Source: Escherichia coli
GTDB taxonomy: Bacteria; Pseudomonadota; Gammaproteobacteria; Enterobacterales; Enterobacteriaceae
Strand: one strand, 5' to 3'
Assembly (NCBI RefSeq): GCF_030013205.1
Contig: NZ_CP122648.1
Length of the DNA stretch: 64,000 bases
The position numbers and the translations under genes were made by a program. The notes under the pieces are model-generated. The model had not been told where the DNA came from, made no database searches, and worked only from the letters and a program-made list of their open reading frames with translations. Positions 1,542 to 32,664 of this stretch are shown here, piece by piece (positions within the stretch are counted from its first letter, which is position 1; each line of letters opens with the position of its first letter).

Positions 1542-1549
1542 TCCTTTCT

Positions 1550-4500
1550 CTATCCCCAATCCAGTCCTTGTGGCGAACTTGAAAATCCCGCCTCACGCAG
1601 CAGCGTAAACATCGGCGTTTGCCGGACCGGTAGGTCATTCACTTCTGTTAGCGTAAAGCGCAGCCGTGGTTCGCGACGCAGTGCGGTAGTCAGCGCGTGG
1701 AAAATCTCTGGGGCGAGTAATTCCTCTTTTTCCTGCCAGACCAGCATTTTTTTGCCACCTTGCGCCAGATAGAGTAACAATTTGCCGCCAGAAACGACCA
1801 CCAGCGCACCCGCCCGACGCGTTGGTATCAGCGTTGCCGGATGTGCAGGCCAGGGCAGAAGATTTCCCCATGCATTAGCCGGATCGTTGGCGGAGAGCGC
1901 CACTGGTGTATAGTGGCGCGTTTGCGCGGTTTGTGTCGCCAGATCGCGCAATCGGTCAATAGTCAGACGTTCAGCGAATTGCGCGCCACCCAGACCTTCT
2001 ACAAAACGACCTCGCATAATTCGCCCGGAGTCTTCCATACTTCGACAAAGCGTTTGCATCGATGGAAACCCGCCAGGGATATTTTCGGCTATCACCGCCT
2101 GACGACTGATGATGCCGTAGCGGTCGAGCATATTTTCCGCCAGCGCCAGCATCCTTTCGGTATCGTTTAGTGGCTCCACCTGCAATAACGACCAGCGTCC
2201 AGCCAGATTTGGTGTGTTGTAAGACACCCGCGGCGAGACGGGTTGTGCATAGACAGGACGCCCACGACGAGCCCGGTGACTGCGGCGAGTTGAGGTGCGT
2301 GCGTTGGAACTGCTGCGGGTGAGGGCGCGTAACGGTGCCCAAATATCGCTGGTGATGACGACTTGCCAGACCAGCGCCCATAACGCCTCTTGCAGTGCCG
2401 AGGGATCAACCGATTCGCCGATTTTATCGCGTATCCGTTGGCTGATTTGTTGTGCAAACCAGGCTCCTCCGTCAGCCAGAACCGTGACTATCGCTTGCTG
2501 CAGTGCCGAACGATTCGCCTGATTCGCTTCGGCGGGAGTGAACGATTCTGCAGCATATTCCTGTAGATGCAGTGCCACCAGGCCGTCATCTTCACCCAGT
2601 TTTTTTGCCCCGACCAGATAACCGCACCGGTTGCCAGTAATTCATCGAGCATTTCTGGCGAATAGTCGCGTACGCGGGCAGGCAGGATCTGGCTTTCCCA
2701 GAGTGAGGCGGGTAAACCGACTCCGGCAAGCTGTTCGATCACCCGCATGACGCCATCCACGCCCTCATAAACGCCTGGCGATGTTGAGGCAAAGAGTGCC
2801 GGGCTACCATCGGTGGCGGGTAATACGCCCTGACGTTCCAGCAGCAATCGCGCATAGGTCGTGGCCGCAACGGGACGTGTCGCTTCTCTGGCGGCTTGCA
2901 GCGAGCGCAAACGCAGACGACGAAATACTTCATCGCTCACCCAGATGTCTTGTTGCAGATTCATCACCAGCCCCTGTTCGCGCAGTTGCTGAAGTTGCTC
3001 TTCGACAATGGCAATACCGAGACTAAACTCATGAGCCAGTTGTTCAGACGTGACCAGAGCATGAGCCCGGAGATAGCGCAGAAAGAGGTCGCGAAGCGGG
3101 TAACTGACTCGGTGCAAATAAATCTCTGGCAGTGACTCTGGTAGTCGTACGCCGAGAGCATCGCGCAGCCTGGCGGCATCATCCATACAGGCAAGACGCT
3201 CCTGCCCGCTAATCATGGTCGGGAAGATTCGTTTTACTGCAAGAAGATTTTCCAGATACGACGCAATCTCTTCACTGCTGCCTGTATGTCGTTGCGCCAG
3301 GTCTTCAACGGTCATTGGCCCCAGTTCGCGCAGCAGGTCGAACAATCCTTCTTCACCTTTCGCTCTTCTGCCAGGAGCCAGTCGTTGCAACTCTTCTTCC
3401 ACCTGGCGAATGACCTGTGGGTCGAGTAATTCCCCCGGATCGACCTGTCCGAGTAGATTGCGCAGTAACTCGCTGTCCAGCGACAGTACGGATGCCCGGC
3501 GCTCTGCCAGCGGGGCGTCGCTCTGGTACATAAATTCCGCGACATAGCCGAACAATAAACTGGCGGCGAAAGGCGAGGGCGTAGTGGTCGTTACATCGGA
3601 TATTTGAATTTCGCCACCGTTCAGGCGACGCATCAAACGTTCCAGCGCGGGAAGATCATAAACATCTTGCAGACATTCGCGTAGGGTTTCGAGAATGACC
3701 GGAAAATCCGGATATCCCTGAGCGATTTCCAGCAACTGACTGGCGCGCAGCCGTTGTTGCCAGAGCGGGGTGCGATGGCCCGGCGTGCGGCCCGGCATTA
3801 ATAATGCCCGCGCGGCGCATTCGCGAAAACGGGCGGCGAAAAGTGCCGAGCTGCCTACCGCCTCGCGGACAATTTGCAGCAACTTTTCTGGTTCAAACAA
3901 AAAAATCGCGGCATCAGGCAATTTACCATCGGTGTCAGGAATGCGCGCAACAATGCCGTCATCACTGGCTACCACAGACGCGTCAGCGCCCCATAGTGCA
4001 TGTATTCGCCCGGCAATCGCCAGCGCCCAGGGTTCATGCACCCGTCTTCCATAGGGAGAGTGCAAAATAATACGCCAGTCACCAATTTCATCACGGCACC
4101 GTTCGAGGACCAGATGACGACTACCTGGAACGATGCCCGTCGCGTTGCGCTGCTCGTCAATCAACCCCTGAATATTGGCGATCGTATTTTCTTCTGCCAA
4201 CCACGGGGGAATAGTCCCGGAAAAGAACGCGCCATCCGCCAGTAAATGGAGAAAATCGCCGATCATCTCGCCTAATTCTGCCGGACGTCCGTTACCTTCA
4301 CCACGCCAGAAGGGAAGGCGGGCAGAACGACCTGGAGCAGGAGTCACAATCACCTGATCGCGGGTGATTTGCTGGATCCGCCATGAGGTAGCGCCGAGAG
4401 TGATAATGTCGTTCACCCGCGACTCATATACCATCTCCTCATCCAGTTCACCCACCCGCCGCGAACCGGCCTGTTCTTCACCTTCGGGTAATAACACGCT

Positions 4501-6165
4501 ATACATGCCACGATCCGGAATGGTGCCACCGCTGGTAACCGCCAACAGCTGAGCGCCAGGTCGGGCGGTCAATATCCCGGTCTCCCTGTTCCAGACCAGT
4601 TTTGGTCGAAAAGCAGAAAAATCGCCAGAGGGATAGCGCCCGGAAAGCATATCCAGCGTGGCGTCAAAAACACGTCTTGGCAGATCTTTCCACGGTGCGG
4701 CACGGCGTACGCGGGAGTACCATTCGTCTGCCTGTAATGCATCCATCGCCGCGGCGGCAACGGTTTGCTGCGCAAGGACGTCGAGTGGATTATGCGGTGG
4801 TGTCAGGTTTTCCAGCCTGCCTGCGAACATACACTCAACAATGACTGCGGAATCGACTAAATCACGCCTGGTTCGGGGGAAAAAAAGCCCTTTGGAGATA
4901 CCACCTACCTGGTGTCCGGCACGTCCAATGCGTTGTAACCCACTGGCAACAGAAAGCGGCGTTGCCACCTGAATCACCAGATCCACCGCGCCCATATCAA
5001 TCCCCAGTTCGAGACTGGAGGTTGCGACCACACAGCGTAATTCACCCGATTTCAGCGCCTGTTCGGTGATTGCTCGTTGTTCTTTAGAGACGGAGCCGTG
5101 GTGTGAGCGGGCAATAAAAATGTCGCTACTTTGTATACGGTTAGAGGTTGCGCCGGAGGTCGACTCGAAATGGACCGCATCAACGGCGATAGACGGGGAA
5201 CGCTGTAAGCGTGCGGCGTAAAGTTCATTCAATCGTGCCGTCAGTTTTTCCGCCAGCCCGCGTGAATTAGTAAAGACAATGGTCGAGCGATGGCGCAAAA
5301 CTTCATCAAGGATACCCGTTTCAATATATGGCCAGATGGAGCCTTCTCGGCCGGCATGGCTGTCTTCGCCGGTGCCGCTGGCGACCGATGAGACATCATC
5401 CATATTGGCGACCGGTACGACAATCCGTATCTGCGGATGGCGCATTGCGGGCGGGTTTACTACCGTAACCGGGCGATCGCCACCAAGAAATGCTGCAACA
5501 TCGCTGGCTGAGCGTACAGTGGCAGAAAGGCCAATTCGCTGTGCTGAGGTGTGGAGCAGCGCATCGAGCCGCTCCAGACTTAACGCCAGATGCGCACCAC
5601 GTTTACTGCCCGCTACCGCGTGGACTTCATCAATAATTACCGTTTCGACGCCGCGTAGCGTTTCGCGCGCGCGGGAGGTCAGCATCAGATAGAGTGATTC
5701 GGGTGTGGTGATCAGAATATCCGGCGGATTACGGGTGAGTTTGCTGCGTTCCTGTGCAGGCGTATCGCCAGTACGGATCCCCACGCGAAGATTGACTTCC
5801 GTTTCGCCGCGCCGCCGCCGTTCATCGGCAATACCCTGTAACGGGATCTGCAAGTTGCGCTGAACGTCGGTGCCCAGAGCTTTGATCGGTGAAATATAGA
5901 GGATGCGTGAGGTTTTACGTTTATGCGCCTCGCGGGTATCTTCGCCGCCTTCGCGGAAGAGCTGATCGAGGGCGTAGAGAAATGCTGCCAGCGTTTTCCC
6001 GGAGCCAGTCGGTGCAATCACCAGCGCATGTTCGCCTCGCGCCGCCACATGCCAGGTTTGCGACTGGACAGCGGTCGGCTGTTTAAAGGCGCGAAGAAAC
6101 CAGTCGCGGGTTGCCGGTGAAAACACGTCCGGCAGGGGCGATGAAAGGTTTGGATTATCTGCCAT
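1550..6165 (-). pseudogene. lhr: Lhr large ATP-dependent SF2 helicase, interrupted by a -1 frameshift (ORFs 2488..6165 and 1550..2578)
   Basis: 1225-aa ORF has helicase motifs (APTGSGKT, DEVH) and a 342-aa ORF continues the Lhr C-terminal region in another frame; frames meet at the T7 run at ~2600..2606. Confidence 0.85.
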
Positions 6166-26110: not shown

Positions 26111-28807
<2,697 letters not shown>

Positions 28808-29465: not shown

Positions 29466-29906
29466 TTACGGATTCACAAACGTCGCTTTCACCCGCGACG
29501 AGCGTTTAAAATAGGGGACGATCAATGCGGTTGCCAACAAAGTAAACAGTAACTGGCGAACGGCTATGCCATCTTCCACGGGTGAAAAAGCGAACGCTTT
29601 TACTGCCAGCAATACGGAAATAAGCAGCCAGATAATATAGTGTTTAGGAACACAACGCCGACGTTTAAAGAAAGCGATGGTCAACCACAGTGTGTAATAC
29701 CACATGGCGATAGCGGTAATAAAAGAAACGCCCCATAAGATTTGTGTCGTCAGTGCTTGTTCGCCGAGCGTTTGAAATGTTTGCGGAGAAGATAACGCAG
29801 CGGTATACAGCAACAACGCCAGCGTCGTACTTAACAGAGCGACTAAAAGCCAGGCCAATGGGCCAAGCAACCAGCCTCCAATACGTTGTGGCGTTGTGGT
29901 GGTCAT
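29466..29906 (-). CDS. ydgK: DUF2569 inner-membrane protein
   Basis: ORF trimmed to MTTTTPQRIGG (146 aa); synteny. Confidence 0.8.
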   Translation of the reverse strand: MTTTTPQRIGGWLLGPLAWLLVALLSTTLALLLYTAALSSPQTFQTLGEQALTTQILWGVSFITAIAMWYYTLWLTIAFFKRRRCVPKHYIIWLLISVLLAVKAFAFSPVEDGIAVRQLLFTLLATALIVPYFKRSSRVKATFVNP

Positions 29907-29991
29907 AGGTTCTCCAGAATAGCGGCGCAAACAGGCAAATCTAATTTTAGGGGCGTTATTATAAGGCTTTTATAACCGATCGCTACTTTCT

Positions 29992-30207
29992 TTATTGGAC
30001 ATAGTGCCAGACGGACTTCGGTACCTGGCCGAGGTCAAACAAACGCCCGCCAGAAACCAGCTCTGCGCGACGGTGATCGGCAGCACGATACATATTGATC
30101 AGTTCCTGATCGTCCGTCAGGGTGTAATTAAGATGGTCGTAGAGTTTTTCCAAACTTTCGAGTGAACTGATTTTGCGAAATTTTAATAAGTAGTCCTGAA
30201 CAGTCAT
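29992..30207 (-). CDS. cnu: OriC-binding nucleoid-associated protein Cnu (YdgT), Hha paralog
   Basis: 71-aa [37 protein letters not shown]... recognised. Confidence 0.9.
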
Positions 30208-30479
30208 AAAAGGTCCATAAAATAATTAATACCAAAGGGGTAGGTATTATTAGTGATGATAAAACTTCACCAAAAGTGAACGCTTGTGTTATTACAATAA
30301 TAAGAATGCGCTGATGGCAAATATTCAGGGATGAAAAACTGCTCTGAAAAGAGTAACGCGCTTTACTATCTCTGACAATCACCAACAACATCGAACAAGA
30401 TAATAAATTCCTGGTTTAATATCCGACAAGTGAAAACATGCACCCGGACGGGCAGCATGTCGCTCTACAAGCGCAGAGC

Positions 30480-30605
30480 TTACTTGTGTTGTACCGTAGT
30501 ACTCTGTTCAGGTGGCTGATAGTTGTCAATGTGACTCGCCACGCCAAGAAGAATGACTGAAACGACAAGAACGATCCAACCTGTTAATTCAATAAGACGA
30601 TTCAT
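30480..30605 (-). CDS. blr: 41-aa membrane protein Blr (beta-lactam resistance/divisome-associated)
   Basis: MNRLIELTGWIVLVVSVILLGVASHIDNYQPPEQ...; ORF-track ORF 30480..30713 trimmed to internal Met. Confidence 0.75.
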   Translation of the reverse strand: MNRLIELTGWIVLVVSVILLGVASHIDNYQPPEQSTTVQHK

Positions 30606-30691: not shown

Positions 30692-30699
30692 AGGTTTTT
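30692..30699. repeat. target-site duplication flanking IS1 (aggttttt), left copy
   Basis: Identical 8-mer on both sides of the element (possibly 9 bp, depending on whether the terminal G is counted as IS). Confidence 0.6.
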
Positions 30700-30714
30700 G
30701 GTAATGACTCCAAC

Positions 30715-31218
30715 TTACTGATAGTGTTTTATGTTCAGATAATGCCCGATGACCTTGTCATGCAGCTCCACCGATTTTGAGAACGACAGTGACTTCCGTC
30801 CCAGCCTTGCCAGATGTTGTCTCAGATTCAGGTTATGCCGCTCAATGCGCTGAGTATAACGCTTGCTGATAACGTGCAGCTTTCCCTTCAGGCGTGATTC
30901 ATACAGCGGCCAGCCATCCGTCATCCATACCACGACCTCAAAGGCCGACAGCAGGCTCAGAAGACGCTCCAGTGTGGCCAGAGTGCGTTCACCGAAGACG
31001 TGCGCCACAACCGTCCTCCGCATCCTGTCATACGCGTAAAACAGCCAGCGCTGACGTGATTTAGCACCGACGTAGCCCCACTGTTCGTCCATTTCAGCGC
31101 AGACAATCACATCACTGCCCGGTTGTATGCGCGAGGTTACCGACTGCGGCCTGAGTTTTTTAAGTGGCGGAAAATCGTGTTGAGGCCAACGCCAATAATG
31201 CGTGCACTGGCGCGACAT
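30715..31218 (-). CDS. insB: IS1 transposase InsB frame (expressed as InsAB' by -1 programmed frameshift)
   Basis: 167-aa ORF recognised as IS1 InsB. Confidence 0.9.
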
Positions 31219-31412
31219 CCGACGCCATTCATGGCCATATCAATGATTTTCTGGTGCGTACCGGGCTGAGAGGCGGCGTAAGTGAACTGTAGTTGCCATG
31301 TTTTACGGCAGTGAGAGCAGAGATAGCGCTGATGTCCGGCGGTGCTTTTGCCGTTACGCACCACCCCGTCAGTAGCTGAACAGGAGGGACAGCTGATAGA
31401 AACAGAAGCCAC
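31137..31412 (-). CDS. insA: IS1 InsA (transposition inhibitor / N-terminal part of transposase)
   Basis: 91-aa [26 protein letters not shown]... with GTG start; zinc-finger CxxC...CxxC. Confidence 0.9.
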
Positions 31413-31467
31413 TGGAGCACCTCAAAAACACCATCATACACTAAATCAGTAAGTTGGCAGCATCACC

Positions 31468-31475
31468 AGGTTTTT
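31468..31475. repeat. target-site duplication flanking IS1 (aggttttt), right copy
   Basis: Identical to 30692..30699. Confidence 0.6.
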
Positions 31476-31623
31476 GCGATATTTAGCTTTTGTCGTTGGA
31501 AAATTCGCTATTTTTTTGACTTAAGTTAAACAACATCCCTTATTGCTGGCAGGTTATTAAACTGTTGAGCGAGGGTAAAGGATAGTGTCAAATAGCCATC
31601 ATACTTCAATGAGAGGCAATGAC

Positions 31624-32664
31624 ATGAGCGACAACATCCGTGTTGGGTTGATTGGGTATGGTTATGCGAGCAAAACCTTCCATGCGCCCCTGATTGCGGG
31701 CACGCCCGGGCTGGAACTGGCGGTTATCTCCAGCAGCGATGAAACAAAAGTAAAAGCCGACTGGCCAACGGTTACGGTTGTCTCTGAGCCGAAGCATCTG
31801 TTTAACGATCCCAACATAGACCTGATTGTCATCCCTACACCCAACGATACCCATTTCCCGTTAGCCAAAGCGGCGCTTGAGGCGGGTAAACATGTGGTCG
31901 TTGATAAACCCTTTACCGTGACACTGTCACAAGCGCGAGAGCTGGAAGCGCTGGCAAAAAGCCTGGGGCGTGTGCTGTCTGTATTCCATAACCGTCGCTG
32001 GGATAGCGATTTCCTGACGCTAAAAGGTTTGCTCGCGGAAGGCGTACTGGGTGAAGTTGCTTACTTTGAGTCTCATTTTGACCGCTTCCGTCCGCAGGTG
32101 CGCGATCGTTGGCGTGAACAGGGCGGCCCTGGCAGCGGTATCTGGTACGATTTAGCACCGCATCTTCTTGATCAGGCCATTACGCTATTTGGTTTACCGG
32201 TTAGCATGACGGTAGATTTGGCACAGTTACGGCCCGGAGCGCAGTCGACTGATTATTTCCACGCCATCTTGTCCTATCCGCAGCGGCGAGTCATTTTACA
32301 CGGCACCATGCTGGCAGCCGCTGAGTCAGCACGTTATATCGTGCATGGATCCCGAGGCAGTTATGTGAAATATGGCCTCGATCCACAGGAAGAACGTCTG
32401 AAAAATGGCGAGCGTCTGCCGCAGGAAGACTGGGGCTACGATATGCGTGATGGCGTACTTACCCGCGTGGAAGGTGAGGAACGTGTCGAAGAAACGCTGT
32501 TGACAGTACCTGGGAATTATCCGGCTTACTATGCGGCTATACGTGATGCGTTAAATGGCGATGGTGAAAATCCGGTTCCGGCAAGCCAGGCAATCCAGGT
32601 CATGGAGTTGATTGAGCTGGGCATCGAATCCGCCAAACATCGCGCGACTTTGTGCCTTGCGTGA
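31624..32664 (+). CDS. ydgJ: Gfo/Idh/MocA-family NAD(P)-dependent oxidoreductase
   Basis: ORF trimmed to MSDNIRVGLIGYGYASKTF (346 aa); Rossmann GxGxxG. Confidence 0.85.
   Translation: MSDNIRVGLIGYGYASKTFHAPLIAGTPGLELAVISSSDETKVKADWPTVTVVSEPKHLFNDPNIDLIVIPTPNDTHFPLAKAALEAGKHVVVDKPFTVTLSQARELEALAKSLGRVLSVFHNRRWDSDFLTLKGLLAEGVLGEVAYFESHFDRFRPQVRDRWREQGGPGSGIWYDLAPHLLDQAITLFGLPVSMTVDLAQLRPGAQSTDYFHAILSYPQRRVILHGTMLAAAESARYIVHGSRGSYVKYGLDPQEERLKNGERLPQEDWGYDMRDGVLTRVEGEERVEETLLTVPGNYPAYYAAIRDALNGDGENPVPASQAIQVMELIELGIESAKHRATLCLA

Follow-up and report, generated by a model that had tools for sequence, protein, structure and literature searches.

The element between blr and ydgJ was confirmed to be an ordinary intact IS1, of a known kind and annotated in RefSeq beforehand. 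It is concluded with high confidence that this complete and apparently competent copy arose by a recent, ordinary InsAB'-mediated transposition into the blr-ydgJ spacer in the porcine ETEC4079 lineage. The window, meaning the whole 64,000-nucleotide stretch of Escherichia coli DNA that was analyzed, carries the element at 30700-31467 (768 bp, transposase genes on the minus strand), with boundaries deduced from reading of the sequence, a search for the terminal inverted repeats, and reconstruction of InsAB'. The slightly longer interval 30692-31475, given in the preliminary description, corresponds to the IS1 plus both copies of its flanking repeat.

The major data supporting the identity of the element were its ends and its coding capacity. 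The pattern used for IS1 ends consisted of imperfect terminal inverted repeats starting GGT(G/A)ATG…CCAACTTA, and it matched the 64-kb window exactly twice, in inverted orientation and 768 bp apart, where 0 matches were expected. The blr-proximal end, IRR (23 bp, 30700-30722, plus strand, GGTAATGACTCCAACTTACTGAT), had 0 mismatches to the pattern, with 0 matches expected by chance, while the ydgJ-proximal end, IRL (23 bp, 31445-31467, minus strand, GGTGATGCTGCCAACTTACTGAT), was found by the same search; the two are identical at 19 of 23 positions. Between them, on the minus strand, lie insA (31137-31412), encoding a 91-residue protein with the zinc ribbon and helix-turn-helix of the repressor and N-terminal part of the transposase (Pfam PF03811 and PF12759), and the insB' frame (30715-31218), a 167-residue ORF holding the DDE_Tnp_IS1 catalytic part of InsAB' (PF03400). 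The A6C site (AAAAAAC) for programmed −1 ribosomal frameshifting was placed at 31155-31161 on the minus strand, IS1 coordinates 307 to 313, by frameshift reconstruction, and a −1 shift at this site gave an uninterrupted InsAB' of 232 residues. The role of A6C in IS1 frameshifting is established (PMC12903888): rare −1 frameshifting there yields InsAB', while InsA represses the IS1 promoter, P_IS1, and competes at the ends of the element.

The reconstructed InsAB' scored 242.8 bits against the NCBIfam equivalog NF033558, "IS1 family transposase" (cut-off, 100), and contained Zn_ribbon_InsA, HTH_Tnp_IS1, and DDE_Tnp_IS1, each at full length, PF03400 giving an E value of 3.6e-74 on the fusion protein. 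The identical copy in ETEC4079 is labeled "IS1 family transposase, programmed frameshift" in RefSeq (WP_236281370.1). Thus, the features by which the IS1 family is recognized, namely, a length of about 768 bp with imperfect inverted repeats, an insA/insB' frameshift pair, matches to the family profiles, and an 8- to 9-bp duplication, were all found. From its sequence, the copy is apparently transposition competent. The full 768-bp IS1 with two 23-bp inverted repeats, insA, insB, and A6C that had been described beforehand was therefore located in every part by sequence reading, end search, and ORFs. A consensus scan also picked out a promoter-like CTGCCA-16-TATGAT (31433-31460, minus strand) that overlaps IRL, coincides in position with P_IS1, and is directed through insA and insB' toward blr; P_IS1 is known to overlap IRL in part (PMC12903888).

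The simple nature of the insertion was deduced from its target site. An identical 8-bp direct repeat, AGGTTTTT, stands at 30692-30699 and at 31468-31475, as had been claimed, each copy directly adjoining one end of the IS1, whereas the same sequence is present as a single copy where K_EC180 and MG1655 have the empty site. The probability of an 8-bp match flanking IS1 by chance is about 1.5e-5. Removal of the IS1 and one repeat copy from the window reproduced the 242-bp spacer of K_EC180 exactly, and this reconstructed empty spacer differed from that of K-12 MG1655 by 2 SNPs. The alignment to reference genomes that had been proposed as a check thus gave the predicted result, with the empty-site string GATTTTTACTGAGGTTTTTGCGATATTT found verbatim in both K_EC180 and MG1655, while the string across the insertion junction in the window reads AAGTTGGCAGCATCACCAGGTTTTTGCGATATT. 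By this sequence comparison, the earlier statement that MG1655 has no IS at the locus also proved correct. The intact duplication, the exact empty site, and the collinear flanks all bear out the proposal of a simple transposition with no later rearrangement. A composite transposon or a cointegrate end was rejected on the basis of the single pair of IS1 ends in 64 kb, the matching duplication, and flanks collinear with K-12; since there is no second IS1 end and the flanks follow K-12, the site is deduced to be a simple insertion rather than a rearrangement junction.

Both 8 and 9 bp are normal duplication lengths for IS1 (PMC12903888), and 8 bp is the rarer of the two. A 9-bp duplication (AGGTTTTTG) was rejected because it would need a 767-bp IS1 missing its terminal G. 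The GC content was 37% in the blr-ydgJ spacer and 30% in the 40 bp around the site, compared to 51% for the window. IS1 prefers AT-rich targets, and the AT-rich spacer agrees with this preference. A search of the window for Rfam families found none; accordingly, the insertion disrupts no known RNA gene.

The insertion splits a divergent spacer. On one side, beside IRR, is blr (30480-30605, minus strand), encoding a 41-residue division-septum and beta-lactam resistance protein, and on the other, facing IRL, is ydgJ (31624-32664, plus strand), encoding an oxidoreductase of the Gfo/Idh/MocA type; both were identified as ORFs and from the RefSeq annotation of ETEC4079. The 242 bp are divided into 94 bp that remain with blr and 148 native bp that remain with ydgJ, and insAB' and blr are co-directional. 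The distance from the blr ATG (30605) to the IS1 was measured as 94 bp, the same as had been given, while that from the ydgJ ATG (31624) to the IRL end was 156 bp rather than the earlier 157 bp, an off-by-one difference or one of counting convention. Published Term-seq data (eLife 2021 supplements) show a 3' end for blr at MG1655 position 1,704,702, equivalent to window position 30454, which supports a short, monocistronic blr transcript.

The window matched the chromosome of ETEC4079 (NZ_CP122643.1; pig feces, Belgium), which is closed and circular in RefSeq, with 2 differences in 64 kb; a literature search for a paper on this strain found none. One difference is in lhr (1549-6165, minus strand), where a run of seven T's at 2600-2606 corresponds to eight in RefSeq ETEC4079 and in ETEC4067, so that the gene is read in the window as two ORFs, 1550-2578 and 2488-6165; this is probably a homopolymer difference of sequencing or polishing rather than biology. 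The other is a private substitution in rsxC (26111-28237, minus strand) at 27762, with A in the window and T in both RefSeq ETEC4079 and ETEC4067, so that residue 159 of RsxC is Q in RefSeq but L in the window. With these two differences, the window and the RefSeq record of ETEC4079 are not the same byte for byte. Within rsxC, a BLAST self-comparison also revealed an internal direct repeat at 26160-26582 (327 bp with 88% self-identity at a 96-bp offset), which looks like a tandem coding repeat. The pyridoxal kinase gene pdxY (19364-20226, plus strand) is divided into two ORFs, 19364-19705 and 19705-20226, and is a frameshifted pseudogene in ETEC4079 by RefSeq annotation.

The distribution of the insertion proved narrow. 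A full junction-to-junction query was matched at 100% only by ETEC4079, 1 of 5,426 complete E. coli genomes. Over the 25 kb of the left flank, 16 more porcine genomes were about 100% identical to the window (ETEC4067, 4069, 4070, 4071, 4068, 4075, 6333, 6334, 1748, and 1701; the O139:H1 strains P15-25 and W13-16; K_EC180; and EC556, EC571, and EC581), and the site was empty in 16 of 16. The closest by bit score, ETEC4067, ETEC4069, and ETEC4070, were only about 1 to 2 SNPs from the window over this flank. As these near-identical clade-mates all retain the empty site, the insertion is deduced to be very recent, younger than the shallow divergence of the clade. The earlier proposal of a strain-specific insertion was accordingly upheld, with a distribution even narrower than had been guessed. 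When a 501-bp blr-ydgJ empty-site sequence was used as the query, 32 of 5,424 genomes had no intact stretch, 17 of them having it split into two places, and only 3 of the 32 were accounted for by the IS1 copies identified in this analysis. The others may reflect other IS elements or deletions, as in one K-12 laboratory strain that covered only 39% of the 501-bp stretch.

The copy belongs to a distinct isoform. Compared to IS1A/IS1E of K-12, it has 51 substitutions and no indels (93.4% identity), and InsAB' differs at 13 residues. At least 99% identity to the isoform was shared by only 150 of 9,595 IS1-matching records, and the best 30 of the 9,595 matches were all 100% identical and all from pig strains; among these 30, IS1 occupied 5 to 21 places on chromosomes and 1 to 5 on plasmids of 48 to 221 kb. 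On the chromosomes of the clade, the query region matched 13 to 23 places (22 in ETEC4079), a range that points indirectly to ongoing IS1 activity within the pig clade, and the blr-ydgJ site is itself polymorphic for IS1 among near-identical genomes.

IS1 copies in the same orientation were found in the blr-ydgJ stretch of 3 of the 5,426 genomes. Besides ETEC4079, these were EC22, where IS1 lies 72 bp upstream of blr with the repeat TAGCTCCAG, and 10035776-3, where it lies within ydgJ codons 2 to 4 with the repeat AGCGACAAC; both are unrelated human isolates. The two share the orientation of the ETEC4079 copy, with the transposase co-directional with blr, but they are of the IS1A/IS1B type, 93.4% identical to the ETEC4079 copy, and have 9-bp duplications at other positions. 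In 10035776-3 (L002, 2061-2828), the IS1 follows ydgJ codon 4 and probably inactivates the gene; PGAP calls a 1044-bp ydgJ starting inside the IS1 end, which is probably an annotation artifact on a disrupted gene. A synthetic query with the IS1 inverted was run for orientation bias and recovered 7 more genomes (six strains), every insertion being outside the blr-ydgJ spacer: in the cnu-blr gap (S9 and AR_451), in cnu (EC17 and Ec394-330266), and in ydgK (AW1.7 twice and ET729). These insertions map to the equivalent of window positions ~29466-30480, cnu being ydgT. An IS1 hot spot was rejected because 3 genomes were seen where about 3 would be expected per 260 bp, an expectation calculated from the ~59,000 IS1 places on the chromosomes of the 5,426 genomes, and an orientation preference was not supported either, as the shared orientation of 3 of 3 insertions in the spacer or ydgJ start gives p=0.25. 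The AT-rich ydgK-cnu-blr-ydgJ stretch gathers IS1 at about the genome-average rate.

Consequences for the neighboring genes were considered from consensus scans. A putative hybrid promoter directed toward ydgJ, TTGGCA-18-GATATT (31454-31483, plus strand), was found, in which the −35 hexamer is part of IRL and the TG-extended −10 hexamer, 18 nt away, is host DNA. It matches the consensus at 9 of 12 positions, and its −10 alone at 4 of 6. The scan did not find this site at the empty locus. Matches of this quality occurred at 4.6% of random window positions and 8.7% of spacer positions, while the TG-bearing version occurred at 0.2% of random positions and at 3 of 484 in the spacer; the site is suggestive of a promoter and is not evidence of activity. 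At IRR, the scan found no hybrid promoter toward blr, even at a relaxed threshold. The inverted repeat of IS1 is known to carry an outward −35 from which hybrid promoters form with a suitably spaced −10, and the reported effects on the downstream gene vary, afaA being raised by 7 log2, ugd unchanged, and osmB lowered (PMC8764528). Native candidates were found for both genes: for blr, ATGTCA-16-TATGAT, which overlaps the start of ydgJ, and for ydgJ, TTCAGG-18-AATAAT, which is close to blr. Each lies across the insertion from the gene it would serve, and both are weak (8 to 9 of 12). IS1 is strongly polar, and transcription from beyond the element should therefore not reach blr. No mapped transcription starts for blr or ydgJ were found in a full-text search or in the eLife 2021, Cappable-seq, and ROSE supplements. 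The altered expression of blr or ydgJ that had been suggested beforehand is a possibility, predicted from the sequence.

Three other explanations were weighed against a recent, ordinary transposition. It would be very unlikely for the insertion to be an assembly artifact in which a multicopy IS1 was misplaced at blr-ydgJ. The genome does hold about 20 IS1 copies (22 places), a repeat of the type that confuses assemblers, and the homopolymer difference between the window and RefSeq indicates some sequence-level uncertainty. However, both junctions are precise to the nucleotide, and the 8 bp that are perfectly duplicated around the element occur once at the empty site; a target duplication is not something that a misjoin would produce. 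Moreover, the RefSeq chromosome is closed and circular, and the window and the RefSeq record contain the identical insertion even though they differ at two positions. That the insertion is old and was lost from the relatives by precise excision can be given almost no weight. IS elements flanked by direct repeats do undergo precise excision, at very low frequency, but scarless loss would be needed in all 16 clade-mates, together with absence from more than 5,400 other genomes, and this distribution effectively excludes it. In addition, the IS1 shows 100% identity to the remaining copies of the isoform in the clade, which is what a recent arrival should show.

The remaining explanation, an adaptive regulatory mutation, was judged improbable, although less so than the other two. 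Under it, selection would have kept the IS1 as a switch, the −35 in IRL and the host TG-GATATT turning on a poorly expressed ydgJ as a hybrid promoter, or blr being lowered or uncoupled as it is cut off from its upstream sequence. The extended −10 with its TG, a version present at only 0.2% of random positions, is consistent with such a promoter, and IS1 hybrid promoters can lift a downstream gene by about 7 log2 (PMC8764528); three independent IS1 insertions in the spacer or ydgJ start in one shared orientation could also be read in its favor. Against this, the −10 is weak (4/6) with an 18-nt spacer, only one genome has the insertion, which shows no sign of having spread, and no known phenotype would make activation of ydgJ an advantage. 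The three insertions are dissimilar in their consequences, the one in ydgJ codons 2 to 4 being probably inactivating, and neither their orientation (3/3, p=0.25) nor their number (3 observed versus ~3 expected from IS1 density) departs from expectation. Should the switch nevertheless be real, the separation of blr by the polar IS1 body would be expected to alter divisome or beta-lactam tolerance properties.

The recent, ordinary transposition is therefore retained, with a standard IS1 mechanism deduced from family membership. The isoform has proliferated within a pig-associated clade of the ETEC/O139:H1-like type, both on the chromosomes and on plasmids of the virulence type, and InsAB' would have catalyzed its insertion with an 8-bp staggered cut in the AT-rich divergent blr-ydgJ spacer in the ETEC4079 lineage. 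Afterwards, a possible IS1/host hybrid promoter would stand upstream of ydgJ, and blr would be left downstream of, and co-directional with, a presumably weak, self-repressed IS1 promoter. We infer that the insertion is, in all likelihood, a passenger mutation, either neutral or mildly deleterious. Its importance outside strain typing is small. It provides a clean, recent marker by which ETEC4079 can be told apart from its nearly identical clade-mates, and it adds one data point on continuing IS1 activity in a pig clade with a distinct isoform on plasmids and the chromosome. If the hybrid promoter is active, it would be one more case of the known IS1-driven change in a neighboring gene, here at the poorly characterized ydgJ and blr, and would raise no new question.

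Compared to known elements, the copy is closest in organization to IS1A/IS1E of K-12 (MG1655 19796-20563 and 3583428-3584195), with the same 768 bp, an identical IRL, the same insA/A6C/insB' layout, a 232-residue InsAB', and an 8- to 9-bp duplication. It differs from them by one IRR base, …TTACTGAT here versus …TTATTGAT in K-12, so that 19 of 23 positions of its two ends are alike compared to 18 of 23. The isoform itself was found at 100% identity over 768 bp in the porcine strains UMNF18, K_EC180, O139:H1 W13-16 and P15-25, O141:H4 P13-6, and the ETEC17xx/40xx series, on both chromosomes and plasmids but at other insertion sites, none between blr and ydgJ, and these chromosomes and plasmids are the likely donor pool. 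The candidate promoter resembles known IS1 hybrid promoters, such as that of the IS1 upstream of afaA in ST131 and those of the Prentki type, which likewise combine an outward −35 in the inverted repeat with a −10-like hexamer in host DNA 16 to 18 nt away. Unlike these, the present one is predicted only; its −10 matches at 4 of 6 positions, and some 130 nt separate the site from the ydgJ ATG downstream.
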